Sequence record: MH560358
Length of the DNA stretch: 64,000 nt
Source: Escherichia virus KFS-EC
Strand: one strand, 5' to 3'
Shown here one piece after another: positions 17,090-27,577 of this stretch (the stretch's first letter is position 1; every line of letters begins with the position of its first letter). Below the pieces are notes generated by a model. The model searched no databases. It worked only from the letters and a program-made list of their open reading frames with translations, and was not told the DNA's origin. The position numbers and the translations under genes are program-made.

Positions 17090-17113
17090 GCCTCCAATCT
17101 TTCGACGGGAGGC
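17090..17113 (-). terminator. stem-loop (GCCUCCC..GGAGGC) followed by U-run; also sequesters SD of downstream gene
   Basis: hairpin immediately after gp56 and its downstream promoter; U6 tract on minus strand. Confidence 0.45.
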
Positions 17114-17142
17114 ATAATAAAACCATTATAGAGTAGTGTCAA
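17114..17142 (-). promoter_or_regulatory. early promoter (TTGACA-17-TATTAT)
   Basis: -35 at 17137-17142. Confidence 0.5.
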
Positions 17143-17149
17143 CTAATTT

Positions 17150-17668
17150 TTAGTAGCCGCGTTCTTGACGGGCGAAGTTTTCAGCATTTTTCAGATAGTA
17201 CAGCTTGAAGATATCCTTAGCGGTTAAACCTAAGCCCAGCATTTTAATCAGCACAAAATGCCAGATATCGATCAATTCCATCGAAATTTCGGTTTTATCG
17301 TCATCTGACAGGTCAGCAAATTTACGCGATCGTGCTTCGCCGTGGTTTTTCTTCCACACTTTAGTAATTGCGCTTGCATCTTTGCCATTTGACATGCCAC
17401 CCAGGGCAACATAAAGTTCTCGTGTCTCGTCGTCGATTGCGTCATCCCACAACTTCATCCAGTCAAGGATTTCTCCACAAGTTTCCAGCTTATCAGGATG
17501 CGGCACCCACTCAAATTTATCAGCTAGTGCGACCTGTAATCCTTTTTGCATATCTAACATTACTTGCAGCGGATCTTTGCCGCTAGTGATTGCCTCGGAA
17601 TACGCAATACCAGCTTTAGACATAGTTTCATCATTAACAAGACCAGCACAAGAATTAAATTCACTCAT
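17150..17668 (-). CDS. 56: dCTPase/dUTPase-like nucleotide pyrophosphatase (MazG-like), gp56
   Basis: MazG-type motif ELIDIWHFVL; T4 gp56 position between modA/B and 61; start at internal ATG with GAGAGG SD. Confidence 0.75.
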   Translation of the reverse strand: MSEFNSCAGLVNDETMSKAGIAYSEAITSGKDPLQVMLDMQKGLQVALADKFEWVPHPDKLETCGEILDWMKLWDDAIDDETRELYVALGGMSNGKDASAITKVWKKNHGEARSRKFADLSDDDKTEISMELIDIWHFVLIKMLGLGLTAKDIFKLYYLKNAENFARQERGY

Positions 17669-17678
17669 AATAAACCTC

Positions 17679-18242
17679 TCAAATAACATTAAACACTGCA
17701 AATTCACCGTGATACTTATACGCATAGTCATTATATACTATTGCGGCGTCTATTTCTAGGTCAAATTGTCCTATATAGACTTTATTTCCTTCATTGTCCC
17801 TTATCTGGGCGACCCATTTACCCGAACGACTATTATAATGCACTCCTTTAAAATTGCTAGTTTTAGTTTGGTTATTTCTTCTCATATTTTGGGTATTCTG
17901 TTTTTGTGTCGCCTCTCTTAAGTTTGGAGGGTCGTTGTTTTCTGGATTCCCGTCAATATGGTCAATGACAGGTGGGCAATACCCATGCTCTAAGAAGAAT
18001 ACTATTCTATGCACAAGCTCAAAATATTGTTTTCCTTCAAAAGAAAACGAGACTTTTAGGTGTCCGGCTGTGACTTTAGATACCTTTACTATATCACCAA
18101 CCTTATAAAACTGGCCTTCTTTCGTCGTTCGGCTTGCTTTGCTGTTTGTTTTATGAATCAATATACCACTTTCGTGTCTATATCTTCGACGTATTTCATC
18201 CTTTAGTTCATCGCTCCATTCTTTGGCTTTCCTTACCCTCAC
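17679..18242 (-). CDS. freestanding HNH homing endonuclease with C-terminal AP2-like DNA-binding domain
   Basis: HNH motif HRIVFFLEHGYCPPVIDHIDGNPENNDPPNLREATQKQN; AP2-like FKGVHYNSRSGKWVAQIRDNEGNKVYIGQF; GTG start with GAGGG SD; inserted between 61 and 56. Confidence 0.75.
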   Translation of the reverse strand: MRVRKAKEWSDELKDEIRRRYRHESGILIHKTNSKASRTTKEGQFYKVGDIVKVSKVTAGHLKVSFSFEGKQYFELVHRIVFFLEHGYCPPVIDHIDGNPENNDPPNLREATQKQNTQNMRRNNQTKTSNFKGVHYNSRSGKWVAQIRDNEGNKVYIGQFDLEIDAAIVYNDYAYKYHGEFAVFNVI

Positions 18243-18259
18243 AATACAACCCTCATTAA

Positions 18260-19288
18260 TTAAAATTTACAATATTTCATAAACCGCATTTTAGCCATCA
18301 GACCTTGTACGGTGTTCTCTTTGATATATTCCATGATCTGGTCGCGTGTAGCGCCCTCGTCCTGAATCATGGCGTTAACGTCTTTAGAATGCCACGGGCA
18401 ACGGTCCCACAATACAATCTTTTCCCCTGCATTGATAAACTTTTCCAGTCGGTGCATTGTATCGGCAGACCGTGGTTCCGCATCAAGTACAAACACTCGC
18501 TGGTCTGGGAAAGGGATTTCATCTAATCCCAAAGTACCGCCAGTAATTGCACACCCGTTATCAATAAACAATGAATCGATCGGACCTTCTAAGAAATACA
18601 CTGGTTTACTCGGATCGGCGCGTTCAAGACCATAGACCTTACTCGCTAACTCGTGAGTTTTAATCGTCATATATTTGGTCTTTCCGTAATCCTTTCTCAA
18701 TGCTCGCCCCTGAATGGATTCTATCTTGTTCTCGCGGTTAAAGATAGGAATCACTAAACGTGGTTCAGGTTGTGGATTCTTGAAAGTATCAGCCTTAATG
18801 TGATTTGCTACCTTTTGCCATTCTCTCGTGAAATACAGAAGATCCCATTTATCGTGAGGGATGCAACGATCACTGACATACTTTATTATAGGATGATTAG
18901 CCGGAAGAGTATCTAATCTCTCGCAGAAAGGCAATGTTTGCACTTTCTTAATCTCCGACTTTTCTACCTTTTTCAGTGGCTTGAACGTGGTGTTCTTGTG
19001 GTCGCCTTGTTCCTTCCGTCGTTCCATAAGCCATTCCCTGAATAGGTCCGGCTTATACTGTTTGAGAAATTCACCTAACGGCTGATTGTAGTTACAGTTG
19101 AAACAGCCGCAACGCAAACTATCCTTATAGGTATAGATACGGAATCGCGCTTGAGTATGATTTTTCTTTGAGTCACCGCAGATCGGACAACTACAGACCA
19201 GCGTAAATGAGCTAGTATGCAACCGTTTAAAATTTCGTTCGCCGTATATGGCTTTTTCCGCTATTTCATAATCTGCGTAGTAAATCAT
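18260..19288 (-). CDS. 61: DNA primase gp61
   Basis: N-terminal zinc ribbon (CSCPICGD...CGCFNC); size 342 aa identical to T4 gp61; synteny with 41. Confidence 0.85.
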   Translation of the reverse strand: MIYYADYEIAEKAIYGERNFKRLHTSSFTLVCSCPICGDSKKNHTQARFRIYTYKDSLRCGCFNCNYNQPLGEFLKQYKPDLFREWLMERRKEQGDHKNTTFKPLKKVEKSEIKKVQTLPFCERLDTLPANHPIIKYVSDRCIPHDKWDLLYFTREWQKVANHIKADTFKNPQPEPRLVIPIFNRENKIESIQGRALRKDYGKTKYMTIKTHELASKVYGLERADPSKPVYFLEGPIDSLFIDNGCAITGGTLGLDEIPFPDQRVFVLDAEPRSADTMHRLEKFINAGEKIVLWDRCPWHSKDVNAMIQDEGATRDQIMEYIKENTVQGLMAKMRFMKYCKF

Positions 19289-20915: not shown

Positions 20916-22328
20916 TTAGAAAGTCATGTTATTTGCTAGCTCGTCGAGTTTTTCTCGTTTCTCGGCTTGCTGTGCGCTTTGTGGTTTAACCTGTGCATTC
21001 TCCTGATCTGCGATCTGGTTTGGGACTTCATACCAACGCTGATTGCCTTTTTTCACACCAACGTTAAACCGTGAATAATAGTTCTTATCACCGTAACGAG
21101 ACTTGATCTGCTTCATGAGTTGGACGCCCATTTTAGCCAGGTCTTCGGTTTCGATAACACCCAACATAAAGTCGGCAGTAGCCGGAAGACCTGCCGATTC
21201 AGCGGTATCACTCATGTTAAGGTCGGAAGCATCCCAACCCGCGCGGGTAGTCTGTGCCGCAGTCCAACCAACAACATCCCACTTAACAAAAAATCCTCGC
21301 AGTTCTTCCGCAATCGCCTTAACTAGTGTGTAACTATTTTCAGAGTATACACGCAAGCGAGACGATGCGCAAATCCCAAGATAGTCAACAATCACAACAT
21401 CAGGTTTAAACTGTTTCTTGAGTCGCAATTCATTCATTAACGCCTCAAAGTGATTGGAGTTCGCGCCACCAGTCGGATACTGCTTGATCATCAATTTTCC
21501 AACCGGACGATCTCCGTTCTTCTTATTCTTAACCCGCTTCATACGTGCGGAATATTCCGCAAAAGAAACATTACCATTATCCAATTCATCTAATGTAATG
21601 TCAAGCAAGTTTGCGTCAATACGTTTGGCTACGACATGCTCTGCCATCTCCATTGAGATATACAATACATCATAACCACATTCCATATAATCCGCAGCAA
21701 GAGAACACAGTCCAAGCGATTTGCCAACGTTTACACCAGCAAGCAACACATTTAGCGTTTTTCTTTCCGCCCCTCCTTTCGTGATTTTATTCAACATCGG
21801 CAGCTTAAATGGGATCTTATTCGCCTTAGTCTGATATAACAGGAATCGTTTTTCAAAGTCATTAAACCAGTCATGACCTACATCAGAATCAAACGTAATG
21901 GATAGTGCTTCCTGCATAATTTCAGGAATAGCGCCCTCACTAGGCAATTTCTTATTCTGTTTCTCTTTTGGTAGTTGTGCGTTCGCCTGAATCTCTAGCG
22001 CCCGTGACATTGCATTGTACATAGCACGGTCACGAATAAATTTTTCGGTTTCCTTCATTAACCAATCAAGGTCTTCCGGTGTATTCTCCAGCGAATCGAG
22101 AAGAGTTTTAGCCCCTTCATATGTTGTCTGATTGCCTCTCTCCTTGTCTAAAGCAATCTGTAATGCAGTTGGCGTAGGAATATTGGAATATTCGTCTACG
22201 TGCTTTTTAATCAGCTTATAAATCAGTTTTTCTTCGTCTTCGGTGAAGTAGTCCGCTTTAAGGTGAGGCCATACATTCGTAAAGAATGCGCCATTGTAAA
22301 TCAACTGTGAAAAGATAGTTTTAATCAT
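20916..22328 (-). CDS. 41: replicative DnaB-like helicase gp41
   Basis: near-collinear match to T4 gp41 as recalled (GAE.GTLNVLMAGVNVGKSLGLCSLAADY, IKQYPTGGA, TAAQ). Confidence 0.9.
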   Translation of the reverse strand: MIKTIFSQLIYNGAFFTNVWPHLKADYFTEDEEKLIYKLIKKHVDEYSNIPTPTALQIALDKERGNQTTYEGAKTLLDSLENTPEDLDWLMKETEKFIRDRAMYNAMSRALEIQANAQLPKEKQNKKLPSEGAIPEIMQEALSITFDSDVGHDWFNDFEKRFLLYQTKANKIPFKLPMLNKITKGGAERKTLNVLLAGVNVGKSLGLCSLAADYMECGYDVLYISMEMAEHVVAKRIDANLLDITLDELDNGNVSFAEYSARMKRVKNKKNGDRPVGKLMIKQYPTGGANSNHFEALMNELRLKKQFKPDVVIVDYLGICASSRLRVYSENSYTLVKAIAEELRGFFVKWDVVGWTAAQTTRAGWDASDLNMSDTAESAGLPATADFMLGVIETEDLAKMGVQLMKQIKSRYGDKNYYSRFNVGVKKGNQRWYEVPNQIADQENAQVKPQSAQQAEKREKLDELANNMTF

Positions 22329-22642
22329 ACGTAGCCCCCAACTACACGCATAACAAAGGTCTTGAGTTTATACCAGAAAGTTTCTTTTTTCAACTTTTCT
22401 TCTGCTTCTTTGATCTGCGCGGTTAACGCCTTAATGACGTGTGGATATACCACATCACGATCTGACGGCGTGGAGTAGTCGACCACAATACCTTTAGTGT
22501 CTGGATCGTATTCAACATTATGAATATAGACAATATGATGTTCTCCCTCTTCATCAACAATTATCAGTTCCTGAATAACTGTCTTCATTGCTTCTTGAAT
22601 CAAGCTGTGTGCTTCTTCTAAACTTGTTGGTTTCTTATCCAT
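22325..22642 (-). CDS. 40: gp40-like protein (head vertex assembly chaperone position)
   Basis: position between uvsX and 41, size 105 aa, ATGA coupling to 41. Confidence 0.5.
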   Translation of the reverse strand: MDKKPTSLEEAHSLIQEAMKTVIQELIIVDEEGEHHIVYIHNVEYDPDTKGIVVDYSTPSDRDVVYPHVIKALTAQIKEAEEKLKKETFWYKLKTFVMRVVGGYV

Positions 22643-22683
22643 AATATAATCCTCTCAGTCAAAATATCATTTTACTACTTTAA

Positions 22684-23433
22684 TTATTCTATGTCAACAA
22701 ATTTCCAATTTGGAAAGTCTGGACTCATACAACGACGCCGAACGGTTCCGCGCTCGTTTCCTAGTACCTTAGATACTTCCGATACAGATTTATAAATCAC
22801 ACCATCAACAAATACAGCCTTTCGGTCTTTCCTGTTTTGGTTTTTGCTCTTTTCTCTTCTGGCTTCTACGTTATCCGAATCATTCCATTGTCTCTTTGCT
22901 GTCTCTCTGGAAGATATTGCCTTTTGTTCTTTAACAATATCTTTAACGAGTTGTTCTTGTCCTGTTATCTTCGCCCACACATTAACAGACTGGATAGCAT
23001 TAGCCTCACTCATTCCCCAGCGTTTGCCGGATATATTCTTACGACGCACGCGTAGAAATTCGTTAAAGACTTCTTCGCATTGGTGCATATAATCACGAAA
23101 TCCATATTTCTTAGCCCATGCCTCTTTAATTGCATCAGACATATTTTCGGCAATACGTCTACGCATCCATGCATACTCCTTATTATTGCGACCGTGACTG
23201 GTCATGCACATCATACGCGAAGCCATAATAAGACCCACATGTTTAGGATACATTTTAGCTAAAAGTAGATGTGCTGTAAAGTGTTCCTCTGGAGTCAATG
23301 GAACGAGATTTTCGTGGTCATCGGTTCCACCCATACAACGTGGTTTAACGTGATGGATCTCTACATATCCGGTCGGCTTCTCGCGGGTTCTTGCTCGTTC
23401 AATCAATTTTTCGTAATGTGCTTTGTAGTTCAT
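22684..23433 (-). CDS. freestanding HNH homing endonuclease
   Basis: HNH motif EIHHVKPRCMGGTDDHENLVPLTPEEH; basic C-terminal DNA-binding region; start at internal ATG with GGAGGA SD right after uvsX terminator. Confidence 0.7.
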   Translation of the reverse strand: MNYKAHYEKLIERARTREKPTGYVEIHHVKPRCMGGTDDHENLVPLTPEEHFTAHLLLAKMYPKHVGLIMASRMMCMTSHGRNNKEYAWMRRRIAENMSDAIKEAWAKKYGFRDYMHQCEEVFNEFLRVRRKNISGKRWGMSEANAIQSVNVWAKITGQEQLVKDIVKEQKAISSRETAKRQWNDSDNVEARREKSKNQNRKDRKAVFVDGVIYKSVSEVSKVLGNERGTVRRRCMSPDFPNWKFVDIE

Positions 23434-23451
23434 GTGATCCTCCATATGAAA

Positions 23452-23470
23452 AAGGGGCATAACGCCCCTT
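23452..23470 (-). terminator. rho-independent terminator after uvsX
   Basis: AAGGGGC-loop-GCCCCTT stem followed by U4. Confidence 0.55.
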
Positions 23471-23484
23471 AACTGTCACTGATA

Positions 23485-24555
23485 TTATGCTAACATATCT
23501 TCGATTTCTTTGTCAACTGCTTCGTCGCTGATAATCTGGCCTAACTGATAATGATCGTTGATTGCTTTCTGGAAGTGCTCATTGGTCAGTAGAGGTTTCC
23601 AGAACTCCACACTGTCAGTGTCTTTTGCACGCACCTTGCGGTCTTCAACTTCCATTTCTCCGGTCTCCTCGTTAAGAATAGCGCGAGAATACCAGCCATT
23701 TGATGGTTTAACTACCCAACCCAACTCCACCGCAAGATCCAGCAATCCAGAATAAGGATCGATGCCACCACTAAACGTTACGCTAATCGGGAACTTTGAT
23801 CCCTCTCTAACCGTTCGTGATTTCTCGGCTTTCAGAATAAAGTCATAACCCGTAACCTCGGTTCCTTCTTTCTGCTGGCGACGCCCAATGATGAAAATTT
23901 CATTGGAAGAGTAAACGCCACCAGTACCGCCACCCATGATATCTTTCGGGTAAAGATCCATTGAGCTATAAACGTGGTTAATCGCAATGCACGGAATATC
24001 ATTCATGGTCAGATACGGCGTAATCATACGGAACAAGCCTTTAAGTGCTTTAGCTCTCGTCATATCCTGCGCCGATTTCTCATTAATCGCGTCTTCAACT
24101 TCTTTTTTACTTGCCAAGTTACCGATTGAGTCAATAAAGATGATCACTTTATCTTCACGGGTAATTTGCTCAAGCTGGTTCATGATCTCAAATTTAAGTT
24201 CTTCGATGTTCTTGATTGGAACGTGCACCACTCGATCAGGATCTACACCCATAGATGACAGATACGCGGAAGTAATGCCAAATTCTGAATCAAAGAACAA
24301 ACAAGCCGCATCTGGATTCTGTTTCATGTATGCACTAACACAAGTTAATCCCATGTTTGATTTAAAGTGCTTAGACGGACCAGCAAAGAAAATCAGACCA
24401 GATTGAAAGCCTTTTTTAAGATCACCAGAAAACGCAATATTCAGCATCGGGTTCTTAGTGCGAGTATTTGTTTTTTCGTTAAAGAAGCTGGATTTAGACA
24501 GTACCGCAGTAGTTTTCAGGGTAGAGTTCTTTTTCAGTTTTTCCAGTACAGACAT
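23485..24555 (-). CDS. uvsX: UvsX recombinase (RecA-like)
   Basis: RecA-fold P-loop (GPSKHFKS) and synteny with 40/41/43; 356 aa. Confidence 0.85.
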   Translation of the reverse strand: MSVLEKLKKNSTLKTTAVLSKSSFFNEKTNTRTKNPMLNIAFSGDLKKGFQSGLIFFAGPSKHFKSNMGLTCVSAYMKQNPDAACLFFDSEFGITSAYLSSMGVDPDRVVHVPIKNIEELKFEIMNQLEQITREDKVIIFIDSIGNLASKKEVEDAINEKSAQDMTRAKALKGLFRMITPYLTMNDIPCIAINHVYSSMDLYPKDIMGGGTGGVYSSNEIFIIGRRQQKEGTEVTGYDFILKAEKSRTVREGSKFPISVTFSGGIDPYSGLLDLAVELGWVVKPSNGWYSRAILNEETGEMEVEDRKVRAKDTDSVEFWKPLLTNEHFQKAINDHYQLGQIISDEAVDKEIEDMLA

Positions 24556-24799: not shown

Positions 24800-24827
24800 A
24801 TTATACACACTTTATCTTAAATGTCAA
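24800..24827 (-). promoter_or_regulatory. early promoter (TTGACA-16-TATAAT) followed by 5'-UTR stem-loop GGCGGGT..ACCCGCC (24773-24799)
   Basis: -35 at 24822-24827 overlapping the 3' end of gene 43. Confidence 0.5.
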
Positions 24828-27495
24828 ACAGGTCCGTAAGCGATGCCACCTTTTCATATTGCAGCTTTGCAGCCGTGGTAATGTTCTCCAGTGGTTTGAC
24901 GAAAGTCTTATTAAACAACAAAGGCCAGTCCAACCACTTCAACACCTCTGATTCAATTTCTGGAGGAATACGAGTACCAGACAACCAACCAAAACAGATT
25001 TCTCCAAACGGATTTCGATCTTTAAGCGGTACAATCATAACCTTCTCGCCTTCACGAATCGGATCTAGTCCGAATTTTCGAGCATTACGATTATAACACA
25101 ATACACTCTTAACCGCATACGGACAACCCTTAATCGGATACCCGTTTGAATCGCTGTATTTCTGTAGGTTGTTTGCAGATGATACCGCAGCAACATCAAG
25201 ATAGTCAAGTTTTCTAAATTCTTGCTCAAAAATACCGTAGTATTCCTGCAATGACTCTTCACCTTCCTGCAACATACGGCGAATACATTCTTTCAGTGAT
25301 TTCTGACATGCTTTAGGGGTGGAGCTACGTTGCGTTTCCAAGCCCATGATTTTTAGCTTAGGTTCAGCAAAGCGCGTTCCTTCCATATCCCAAACATTAA
25401 GAGCATAACGCTTTTTGCCAGTCCAGAATCCACCGATACCCGCAGATTTCAACGGAGGACCAGCAATTGCCTCACGGTCCATAAACATCAAGTGCTCATA
25501 GTTATTCATGTACTCGCATAACTCGCGATATCCCTTGTCGATAATAGGTTCCATCCGATGTTTACCGAAATTATCAAGGAAGTCAACAAGTTTTTCGGTA
25601 TCGTCGAAACGATCTTCCCCGCCAACCTTATCAACAACATTGTTAACCAGCACATAAACGGAGTCAGTATCACAATAACGAACATATGCAAAATCGGTTG
25701 TTCCGCAAAGCTCGTTTAAGTATTCGTTAATCTTACGCTCAATCCACTGAATTGCAAGCTGACCAAACAAGGTGATCGCACTAGCGTTACGGAGATCATA
25801 AAAACGGAATTTAGGATTCCCCAACGCACCATAAAGGGAGTTGATCAAAACTTTTCGAGAAAGCTGGTTTGTATTGCACAAGATCGACTCGTCTTTACAT
25901 TCTTCCAGCAATTTCTCTAAGGCATCTTTACTTAATTCAGAAAGCATCGATTTAAACGCTTCATCAAAGTCGTGACGCACTTCAACGCTATAGCTAATGG
26001 TTCCCCCATAAACATGATTTTCATCGTGTAGAATCGCTTTACAGAGTTCAGCATTGCGATCACATGCCAGCATCATATTTTTGTACTGCTTGCGCTGGTC
26101 GAATACCTTTTTAATCTCAATCGGTACGATACCATGAATATCTTTTCGATACATCCACCCGTTAGGCGAGCAAGAATACTCATCGCTCGGACGCGGGGCA
26201 GTTTTATTGATATACTCGTGCATCGGTGCAGCATCAAAAGATCCAGCGATTGTTTCCGGCGAAATGTTAACCTGACGGATGATTGATGGATACAGACTTG
26301 TTAAGTCAAAGCTCATCATCCAGCGATAAGCATTAGGTACAGGTTCTTTTACAAAAGCACCTGGATAAGTCTGCTTAGGCTGTATCTTGTTCTCCGGTAC
26401 TACTTTACCCTCAGCTTTCAGAGATCCGAAAATAATAGCATCCCATACTTTCATCGGGTTATAAACATGGTTAAATTTAATCTTTGCATAGAAACATAGG
26501 CTATACACCAGATCGATAAATCCGCGCTTTTTATCAATCGCCAGCACACGATCAACGTCGCCGATGTTATAATCGATGTAAAGTTGATGGTTGTCATCAC
26601 GCAATTTCTTTAACGGACCGTCATAATCAACCTTACCGATTCCTGTCTCATATTCAGCAACATAATCTAATGCATATGTTGGTTGAGTCGTAAAGCTAAA
26701 TTTCTTGTACAGGTCAATATAATCAAGGCTTTCGATCCCCATGATCGTAAATGCTTCACGCTCGTTGCCAAAATCATCCTGTGAGATTCGGGATTTAATC
26801 TTACCGCACGGGCTTAGACGGGTAGCGGTTCTACTTCCGAACTTATTACTGATACGCTTAATGATATATGGAATATCGAATGTTTCTGTGTTCCAGCCAG
26901 TGAAACCAACTGGTCGGTTTTCCTCAAAGAATCGGATGTATTCTAACAGCAATTCATCTTCTGTATCATAGACATTATAAACAACGCGCTCTACAATATC
27001 TGGACGAAGAATGGATTTGCTTGCTTCCCAAGATTCACCGTTTTTTCCTTTCAAGTCAAATACAAAGAAACGATCATGTACGGAATCATAATGCGTAATT
27101 GCATCGATAGGATATTTCGCTTCTTCTGGTTTAGGAAATTCCGGTGCAGTGACCTCAATATCAACCCAGGATACACGGATTTTATTTCGGTCATATCGAA
27201 TCTCACCTTTATATGTATCGGACAGATAGGAGATGATAAAATCATCCATCCCTAGTGCCTCCTGCCCCATTTCTCCCATCTTTTTACGCCATTTGTTGGC
27301 CTCGTTCATAGATGGGAATTTTTTAGCAATGCAAGGCTTGCCATAGATATCTTTATAATTCGTAACCATACCAGGCGCGGCATGATGAAATAAAGTTGGC
27401 GTATATTCAACGTAACGCTCTTGTTCTTGTCCAGCATCATCAATATAACGCTCGTAGATCTTATCACCTACTCGCTCACATGACAGAAAATACAT
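24817..27495 (-). CDS. 43: DNA polymerase gp43 (family B)
   Basis: collinear with T4 gp43 as recalled from N-terminus (ERYID, KFPSM, EALGMDDF, DIEVT) through polymerase motifs (YGDTDS); start at ATG with AAGGAG SD. Confidence 0.92.
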   Translation of the reverse strand: MYFLSCERVGDKIYERYIDDAGQEQERYVEYTPTLFHHAAPGMVTNYKDIYGKPCIAKKFPSMNEANKWRKKMGEMGQEALGMDDFIISYLSDTYKGEIRYDRNKIRVSWVDIEVTAPEFPKPEEAKYPIDAITHYDSVHDRFFVFDLKGKNGESWEASKSILRPDIVERVVYNVYDTEDELLLEYIRFFEENRPVGFTGWNTETFDIPYIIKRISNKFGSRTATRLSPCGKIKSRISQDDFGNEREAFTIMGIESLDYIDLYKKFSFTTQPTYALDYVAEYETGIGKVDYDGPLKKLRDDNHQLYIDYNIGDVDRVLAIDKKRGFIDLVYSLCFYAKIKFNHVYNPMKVWDAIIFGSLKAEGKVVPENKIQPKQTYPGAFVKEPVPNAYRWMMSFDLTSLYPSIIRQVNISPETIAGSFDAAPMHEYINKTAPRPSDEYSCSPNGWMYRKDIHGIVPIEIKKVFDQRKQYKNMMLACDRNAELCKAILHDENHVYGGTISYSVEVRHDFDEAFKSMLSELSKDALEKLLEECKDESILCNTNQLSRKVLINSLYGALGNPKFRFYDLRNASAITLFGQLAIQWIERKINEYLNELCGTTDFAYVRYCDTDSVYVLVNNVVDKVGGEDRFDDTEKLVDFLDNFGKHRMEPIIDKGYRELCEYMNNYEHLMFMDREAIAGPPLKSAGIGGFWTGKKRYALNVWDMEGTRFAEPKLKIMGLETQRSSTPKACQKSLKECIRRMLQEGEESLQEYYGIFEQEFRKLDYLDVAAVSSANNLQKYSDSNGYPIKGCPYAVKSVLCYNRNARKFGLDPIREGEKVMIVPLKDRNPFGEICFGWLSGTRIPPEIESEVLKWLDWPLLFNKTFVKPLENITTAAKLQYEKVASLTDLFDI

Positions 27496-27577
27496 AATAT
27501 AAACTCCTTCACTTACGAAAGACACTCATTATAGGGGAATCGACCTAGTTTGTCAATACCCCTATCCCATCAGTATC

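Follow-up and report, generated by a model that had tools for sequence, protein, structure and literature searches.

Free-standing homing endonucleases are a main driver of mosaicism in T4-like phages, and very few targets of the T4 Mob family of such enzymes are known. MobA and MobE, the only Mob enzymes with targets listed in a 2010 review, nick those targets (Edgell et al., 2010; PMC2988022); the same review records a promoter between mobE and nrdB, gives uvsX as the target gene of SegA (Table 1 in PMC2988022) and describes I-HmuI as an HNH nickase. We analysed a 64,000-nt stretch of Escherichia virus KFS-EC (record MH560358; the window, to whose positions all coordinates refer), a Krischvirus (RB49-like) genome, in which a 249-residue homing endonuclease gene (HEG) lies between the recombinase gene uvsX and gene 40. 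HEG is a new member, at a new site, of a well-known kind of element, and two GenBank records already label the gene as a homing endonuclease. To this the analysis adds a specific target prediction inside uvsX, a recoded recombinase loop that travels with the element, and apparently undescribed 'fractured uvsX' loci.

Among the closest described systems are T4 MobA-E, especially MobE and MobB. HEG shares with these proteins the N-terminal signature MNY..Y..LI...HH(I/V)xPRCMGGxDDxxNLVxLTxEEHFxAHxLL (52–55% identity over ~110 residues) and, like them, is a free-standing open reading frame (ORF) between conserved genes, sporadically distributed and with a variable C-terminal DNA-binding region. 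Expression from upstream promoters with a terminator nearby, and a promoter between the endonuclease gene and the downstream essential gene (as at mobE/nrdB), have predicted counterparts here. HEG differs in its site (uvsX/gene 40, as against nrdA/nrdB, alpha-gt/alpha-gt.2, nrdG/nrdD and others), in middle and C-terminal regions that the T4 paralogues do not share, the C-terminus being an I-TevI-type helix-turn-helix, and in having a predicted rather than a mapped target. T4 SegA is also a free-standing homing endonuclease flanking uvsX, its listed target, but it is a GIY-YIG enzyme on the other side of the gene (between uvsX and beta-gt) and gave no BLASTP match to HEG. The fractured genes described in 2009 involve GIY-YIG and Vsr-like endonucleases, not HNH, and uvsX is mentioned there solely for lying upstream at three gp41 loci, without being described as fractured itself (PMC2677866). 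Relatives of HEG (loci L016, L017, L018 and L020–L022) resemble that system in lying between intein-N and intein-C halves that break uvsX, whereas the HEG of the window is outside any intein and its uvsX is intact. The intron-encoded I-HmuI and I-TevI of phages SPO1 and T4 share with HEG a modular design of nuclease plus C-terminal I-TevI-type helix-turn-helix; I-HmuI also ends in an I-TevI-like helix-turn-helix. Unlike them, HEG has no intron; the catalytic domain of I-TevI is of the GIY-YIG type, and no significant full-length similarity of HEG to any solved structure was found.

The endonuclease gene and its empty site

An earlier note, made from the letters of this DNA, had placed a 249-residue ORF between uvsX and gene 40, starting directly past the uvsX terminator hairpin. 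The ORF list, the sequence and the Pfam and PHROG assignments of the neighbours bore out this placement, with the hairpin (23470–23452) directly upstream of the Shine-Dalgarno (SD) sequence of HEG; the sole correction concerns the strand, which had not been given and is minus (Table 1). The protein begins MNYKAHYEKLIERAR, and the gene order is uvsX, terminator, HEG, gene 40, gene 41. HEG is free-standing: it has its own SD and ATG, is intergenic and leaves uvsX uninterrupted. No group I intron was found anywhere in the window (Rfam, at the gathering threshold and at E ≤ 1) and, with uvsX intact, the gene is neither intron- nor intein-encoded. A 258-residue reading that starts at an ATG within the terminator loop was ruled out, as it lacks an SD and the GenBank precedent is the shorter form. 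A match to the Rfam family sroD at 23446–23532 (20 bits, E = 0.81) was set aside as chance.

The HNH motif and the C-terminal DNA-binding tail proposed in the same note both held up. The motif, EIHHVKPRCMGGTDDHENLVPLTPEEH, occupies residues 25–51; 30 aligned homologues show no variation at H28, N42 or H51, and the protein matched PHROG 655 'homing endonuclease' (3.7e-49). Pfam HNH (PF01844) scored 18.6 bits, under its cut-off of 21.4. In the AlphaFold model (predicted local distance difference test score, pLDDT, 89.4), strands at 25–28 and 43–46 and a helix at 48–61 form a beta-beta-alpha unit (residues 25–61, pLDDT >90), followed by a helical middle region and a small C-terminal domain. Foldseek matched the HNH region locally and weakly (E ≥ 0.8, probability 0.87–0.89) to the Cas8-HNH, Gme-HNH, McrA and colicin E9 nuclease domains. 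With the catalytic His, the structural Asn and the metal-binding His positioned on this fold, the model places HEG in the HNH (beta-beta-alpha-metal) nuclease superfamily. The tail corresponds to Pfam I-TevI_DNA-bd (PF20987) at residues 197–245 (27.7 bits, cut-off 27), and the top Foldseek match of the model was the I-TevI DNA-binding domain 1i3j_A (probability 1.00, root-mean-square deviation 1.0 Å over 43 columns). Full-length Foldseek against the PDB gave nothing at E < 0.001, with domain-level matches only; phmmer against PDB sequences gave only marginal HNH matches (E ≥ 0.09), and the NCBIfam search of HEG only a weak IscB HNH match.

BLASTP against the proteins of the annotated T4 record matched residues 1–106 of HEG to MobB (52% identity, 5e-34) and residues 1–76 to MobE (55%, 2e-26), followed by MobD (7e-21), MobC (5e-17) and the MobA remnant (7e-8). 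The N-terminal signature MNY...HHIxPRCMGGxDDxxNLVxLTxxEH is present in HEG, and its residues are invariant in the 30 homologues. On these matches we assign the ORF to the T4 Mob family of free-standing HNH homing endonucleases, a membership that the earlier note had missed.

Alignment of the junctions with Sf20, JEP8 and RB49 delimited an inserted cassette of 787 bp, comprising the SD, the HEG ORF and an outward promoter. The synteny comparison suggested beforehand for the uvsX–40 junction was made on 58 phage records matching the uvsX–41 region. The full query was spanned, and the cassette carried, by three of them (pEJ01, Sf20 and JEP8), while no match in the other 55 spanned the cassette: 37 individually listed empty records matched in two pieces at 70% coverage (1,814 bp vs 2,601 bp), and none of the 18 remaining empty records, which are not listed individually, covered 80% of the query. 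A lack of empty-site alleles had been named as the outcome that would speak against a mobile element; such alleles predominate, and in RB49 the terminator T-run and the gene 40 ribosome-binding site abut with 'TAG' alone (3 bp) between them. HEG thus shows a presence/absence polymorphism with a precisely defined empty site. The uvsX locus of the window is 99.9% identical to that of phage vB_ESM-pEJ01, and the carriers span two Krischvirus species (RB49: Sf20; gec3s: JEP8) plus pEJ01, which has no species assignment. GenBank labels the gene 'HNH homing endonuclease' in Sf20 and 'homing endonuclease' in JEP8. The ORF is intact in four genomes, the database copies included, and the ratio of non-synonymous to synonymous divergence (dN/dS) among three copies was 0.10–0.13; these values (about 0.1) indicate purifying selection. 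Foreign base composition as a sign of recent import was uninformative, the G+C content of HEG (0.415) being within that of the phage (0.40–0.42).

Divergent uvsX sequence in carriers and uvsX-linked relatives

A feature newly found here is that the 3' tract of uvsX, as far as the L2 codons, is highly divergent in all genomes that bear the cassette. In a nine-genome alignment of the flanks, carriers were 79–87% identical to empty-site genomes from 23446 to ~24000 (the last ~190 uvsX codons), against 97–99% identity outside the tract and ~99% among the empty-site genomes within it. Synonymous divergence (dS) in the tract was 1.0–1.3 for carriers vs 0.07 among empty-site genomes, with dN/dS about 0.1, which argues that the tract is functional uvsX sequence from much more distant lineages and not the product of decay. 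The divergence is one-sided, with 0–2 differences per 50 bp in the gene 40 flank. At least three carrier alleles (window/pEJ01, Sf20/JEP8 and the metagenomic contig L013) share a distal boundary near window position 24000, and divergent uvsX alleles occurred in 3/3 occupied records vs 0/54 empty ones. These comparisons indicate that the 3' half of uvsX was imported with the cassette, a point absent from the earlier note. Nothing nearer than ~84% to the uvsX 3' allele of the window was found in the phage collection, and no other carrier of the Sf20-type L2 peptide among the phage records; the donors therefore appear to be unsampled.

The densest substitution cluster in the gene falls on codons 195–208, a segment that we take to be the RecA-family L2 DNA-binding loop, where the window has VYSSMDLYPKDIMG vs the canonical TYETQEMFSKTVMS. 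The segment reads YETQEMFSKTVM in empty-site Krischviruses and T4, YSSMDLYPKDIM in the window, YSEMSLYPKEIM in Sf20 and JEP8, and YLTQELYSKTVM in L013, and in each of these carrier alleles the densest 36-bp cluster lies on the L2 codons. The window allele differs at 25 of 36 bp and the Sf20 allele at 23 of 36, clusters that none of 20,000 permutations reached in either case; the JEP8 allele also differs at 23 of 36, and the L013 allele at 15 of 36, a value reached in 1,023 of 20,000 permutations. At the protein level, 8–9 of 12 L2 residues are changed. All 54 empty-site Krischvirus records keep the canonical L2 DNA at ≥95% over 78 nt, and RB49 and T4 agree at 40 of 45 of its bases. The variant loop of Sf20/JEP8 is also present in L014, which belongs to a different lineage, and in no other phage record.

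A search of 5.8 billion proteins returned 187 relatives of HEG at E ≤ 1e-10; an IMG/VR scan with peptide patterns from the HEG protein found no relatives. Genomic context was read for eight of the best full-length relatives, and all eight were uvsX-linked (Table 1); five of them are flanked by the halves of a split intein that breaks uvsX where the L2 loop is encoded. The break falls between NHTYx and T(Q/M)E(M/L)(F/Y)SK in four of these and between SGG and TG in one; the breaks lie within the codons recoded in the carriers or two codons downstream. All five intein loci have the canonical Cys opening the N half and HN ahead of the break, and L018 and L020–L022 also have the +1 Thr; the intein halves of L016, L018 and L020 gave consistent sub-threshold Hint and Intein_splicing matches. 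The split-intein relatives retain the canonical extein TQEMFSK. In an unbootstrapped neighbour-joining tree, the uvsX-linked proteins lie apart from T4 MobB-E and from a uvsW-associated relative in T6. The HEG tree is discordant with the phage backbone, the window protein being 61% identical to that of L014 (genome ~70%) and 55% to that of L013 (genome ~92%). Since HEG identities run opposite to backbone relationships, horizontal movement of the gene is indicated.

The metagenomic contigs with a fractured uvsX are L016 (3074–5297), L017, L020 (549–2784), L021 (2186–3806) and L022 (1921–4111). Their layout is a UvsX N-part joined to intein-N (C-G-T-E...), a Mob-like HNH ORF, and intein-C (...ISHN followed by T) joined to the UvsX C-part; L022 also has an intein-C-like end (IIHHN followed by T) near the P-loop. 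L018 (920–3646) carries two elements in one uvsX, namely a group I intron after '...AINH' (RF00028, 101.9 bits, 1485–1727) and, ~14 codons past the intron site, the split intein at SGG/TG, whose halves flank the Mob-like HNH gene. The literature searched held no paper on uvsX inteins, and the fractured uvsX loci are apparently undescribed. Judging from the related metagenomic loci, uvsX appears to be a hotspot for inteins, introns and endonucleases.

Predicted target and route of spread

We regard HEG, as the probable though far from certain reading, as a mobile Mob-family endonuclease that targets the canonical L2-coding DNA of uvsX ~500 bp away and spreads by co-conversion. The population footprint, a one-sided divergent tract perfectly linked to the cassette, is consistent with co-conversion of flanking markers. 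The earlier note had proposed an assay for nicking or cleavage near the insertion site; the target is probably instead the L2-loop codons inside uvsX. HEG would have no promoter of its own, its product arising at a low level from early-promoter transcripts that read through the uvsX terminator. On co-infection with a cassette-free Krischvirus, the enzyme would recognise the L2-coding DNA (TAC GAA ACG CAA GAA ATG TTT AGT AAG ACC GTT ATG), ~500 bp upstream of HEG, and nick or cut it, as MobA and MobE nick their targets; in the cassette-free uvsX of RB49 the predicted nick or cut lies within or next to TACGAAACGCAAGAAATGTTTAGTAAGACCGTTATG. The break would then be repaired by recombination-dependent replication with the cassette-bearing genome as template, and everything from the break to the cassette (~500 bp of the uvsX 3' end, the terminator and HEG) would be copied across. 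Such repair would leave a one-sided tract with a fixed distal end, because all the DNA from the L2 break to the cassette is copied. The carrier would be immune through its recoded L2 codons (25/36 bases), and the outward promoter of the cassette would keep genes 40 and 41 transcribed.

Several points weigh against this reading. The relatives resident in L2 may differ from HEG in specificity, as they are only ~37% identical to it and the C-terminus of the L016 protein is of another, zinc-finger-like type. Their grouping with HEG comes from the unbootstrapped tree, with identities of 36–42%, about as high as those to MobE. Most of the L2 recoding changes amino acids, more than would be needed for immunity alone. 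When the window is compared with Sf20, dS of the uvsX tract (1.27) exceeds that of HEG (0.16; 0.41 in the first 80 codons); simple co-inheritance is therefore insufficient and extra recombination among HEG-bearing lineages must be assumed. The outward promoter is called from a consensus match only, and nuclease activity, nicking or cleavage and the target site are all deduced from sequence.

The main rival is a mobile enzyme of the same family whose cut lies in or beside the site where its gene inserts, the empty junction of terminator and gene 40 SD, with the uvsX tract as dragged-in donor DNA; we consider it rather unlikely. Insertion would destroy the junction sequence and so confer immunity without any recoding, and three separate lineages, namely Krischvirus, L014 and L015, do have the cassette directly past the uvsX terminator. 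A cluster of nine changes at 23568–23585, ~125 bp from the cassette, is common to the window, Sf20 and JEP8 alleles and would also fit a cut near the insertion point, but it is absent from L013. Cutting at the junction should give two-sided co-conversion, yet the gene 40 side is nearly unchanged, and it accounts neither for the end of the tract at the L2 codons, seen in four alleles, nor for the densest cluster at those codons, nor for the related endonuclease genes inside the L2-coding region.

Two further explanations were weighed. HEG could be a domesticated or decaying immobile remnant of one old insertion followed by many losses, the uvsX mosaic having come from ordinary, unrelated recombination. 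Decay does occur, as shown by a frameshift near residue 160 in L014; DNA differences among the three database copies (3–7%) are similar to those of the flanks, so that a very recent sweep is not demanded, and the base composition of HEG matches the phage. Four genomes, however, have an intact ORF, dN/dS is about 0.1 and the catalytic triad does not vary, the 55 of 58 records without the cassette would need many independent precise deletions, divergent uvsX alleles occur only with the cassette, and the HEG phylogeny is at odds with the backbone; we judge an immobile remnant improbable. Alternatively, the recoded L2 loop itself could be the selected feature, as an altered recombinase or an escape from a host factor, with the HNH gene hitch-hiking. 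The extent of amino acid change in the loop and the occurrence of one variant loop in two distant lineages would fit, but no cassette-free genome has a variant loop, the split-intein relatives keep the canonical extein, as would follow if it is the DNA site that counts and not the protein loop, and nothing in the data points to a host factor acting on UvsX. Selection on the loop is, in our judgement, very improbable.

We raise as possible, though doubtful, that HEG belongs to a Mob-like HNH lineage specialised on uvsX that occurs in two states, between the halves of a split intein that breaks the uvsX L2 region, or free-standing past an intact uvsX with a recoded L2. If such a lineage exists, the Krischvirus cassette would document a switch between intein-associated and free-standing lifestyles within one endonuclease lineage, and the element would spread a variant DNA-binding loop of the recombinase on which its own homing depends, with possible effects on recombination in carriers. 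Carriers have a substantially different DNA-binding loop in their recombinase, a consequence beyond selfish DNA. The imported tract would also explain the locally aberrant uvsX 3' half of some Krischviruses, uvsX being a common phylogenetic marker for T4-like phages. The locus is a natural experiment: among the sequenced Krischviruses, which include RB49 and further isolated phages, the site is empty in 54 and occupied in 3.

Expression, the second HNH gene and further insertions

Table 1. Features of the uvsX–gene 40 region in the window, and uvsX-linked relatives of HEG in other genomes (positions in window coordinates unless a context is given).
Feature	Position or context	Strand	Evidence or remarks
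First HNH gene (HNH_3 + AP2), between primase gene 61 and dCTPase gene 56	17679–18242	minus	
Gene 40 (head vertex assembly chaperone), downstream neighbour	22325–22642	minus	Pfam Phage_head_chap 5.9e-25; PHROG 999
Inserted cassette, 787 bp	22657–23443	no strand	junction alignments with Sf20, JEP8, RB49
Outward sigma70-like promoter (predicted), TTGACA-17-TAAAAT, cassette 3' end, facing gene 40	22669–22697	minus	11/12 consensus
HEG, free-standing Mob-family HNH homing endonuclease gene, 249 residues	22684–23433	minus	ORF list, sequence, PHROG, BLASTP, dN/dS
C-terminal I-TevI-type helix-turn-helix DNA-binding domain, residues 197–245	22699–22845	minus	Pfam PF20987, Foldseek
N-terminal HNH (beta-beta-alpha-metal) nuclease domain, residues ~1–60	23254–23433	minus	invariant residues, model, weak Foldseek
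HEG-linked divergent (co-converted) tract: uvsX 3' part and terminator loop	23446–24000	minus	identity, dS
HEG Shine-Dalgarno, GGAGG	23439–23443	minus	read from sequence; 5 nt ahead of ATG
uvsX intrinsic terminator hairpin	23452–23470	minus	terminator scan, fold, GEC-3S terminator annotation
uvsX (RecA-like recombinase, 356 residues), predicted target gene	23485–24555	minus	Pfam RecA + T4_UVSX_C; PHROG 97
Recoded UvsX L2-loop codons 195–208	23932–23973	minus	25/36 bases differ from empty-site allele; densest cluster in gene
Consensus early promoter, TTGACA-16-TATAAT	24800–24827	minus	12/12 consensus; drives small ORF, uvsX, and HEG by read-through
L013, P0003	between uvsX and gene 40		backbone ~92% identical; HEG 55% identical, intact
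L014, P0004	between uvsX and gene 40		backbone ~70% identical; HEG 61% identical, frameshifted near residue 160; Sf20-type loop
L015, P0006	directly after uvsX		more distant T4-like phage
L016/L017, P0007	between split-intein halves in uvsX		break NHTYx/T(Q/M)E(M/L)(F/Y)SK
L020, P0008	between split-intein halves in uvsX		break as L016/L017
L021, P0009	between split-intein halves in uvsX		break as L016/L017
L022, P0010	between split-intein halves in uvsX		break as L016/L017
L018, P0005	between split-intein halves in uvsX		break SGG/TG; plus group I intron

HEG lies just downstream of the uvsX terminator, a hairpin (AAGGGGCGTTATGCCCCTT) with a T-run that is also present in empty-site phages. No late (TATAAATA) or MotA-type promoter was found ahead of HEG; HEG transcripts must therefore start at the early promoter, which the RB49 and GEC-3S records list as hypothetical, and continue past the terminator. 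Expression of HEG is probably weak. A hairpin sequestering the ribosome-binding site of HEG, as in Aeh1 mobE, was considered and dropped, as the fold was no better than those of shuffled sequences (z = –0.82) and the SD was not clearly paired. A 10/12 sigma70-like match with an extended –10 TG at 23516–23487 (minus strand) lies in the last uvsX codons before the terminator, where the sequence is coding-conserved in all relatives, and is probably a chance match.

The –35 element of the outward promoter overlaps the last 'VD' codons of HEG. The arrangement is kept in Sf20, JEP8, L013 and L014 (with GATAAT as the –10 in L014), although the HEG proteins of L013 and L014 are only 55–61% identical to that of the window. 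By analogy with the mobE/nrdB promoter, a plausible role is to offset polar effects on genes 40 and 41. The outward promoter of the L014 HEG is followed by a hairpin. Between the uvsX-linked HEG and gene 40/41, the distant T4-like contigs L014 (6865–7596) and L015 (4802–5533) each have a 243-residue ORF that gave no Pfam match, and the two ORFs look dissimilar.

The window has another HNH gene, from which HEG had been called unrelated in sequence and independently acquired. Both claims stand. BLASTP between the two HNH proteins detected no similarity (E = 1.2), and the database distributions do not overlap: the first HNH gene was found in six other records (phiS, G2494, AV108, TB34, SAP and ELT3), none with the uvsX-linked HEG, and pEJ01 has the latter without the former, which argues that the two elements were acquired independently. 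Because pEJ01 is nearly identical at the uvsX locus yet lacks the first HNH gene, the window genome would be a mosaic that is not in the phage collection. The flanks of the first HNH gene (17100–18900) fall into ~98% and ~88% identity classes among genomes without the gene, and these classes suggest a second co-conversion tract around it.

Other insertions were seen in related phages. In T6 (L019, 996–3449) and many Tequatroviruses, a 37%-identical Mob-like HNH gene lies between two annotated DNA-helicase (uvsW) ORFs, the uvsW coding region being annotated in two parts around it. The DNA polymerase gene 43 is split in JEP8 (L003, 5818–8601) and kvi (L008, 5031–7814), with a 274-residue unannotated ORF between the parts, and in L013 (1674–4617) it is called as 567- and 317-residue products flanking a ~290-bp gap; gene 43 of the window is intact (24817–27525). 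The interruption looks like another mobile insertion that is polymorphic in Krischvirus. TB34 (L009, 1–283) has a further 187-residue 'HNH homing endonuclease' gene (ECD7-like) beside ORF017, at a position that is empty in the window and that is a third endonuclease site in one 10-kb block of replication genes.

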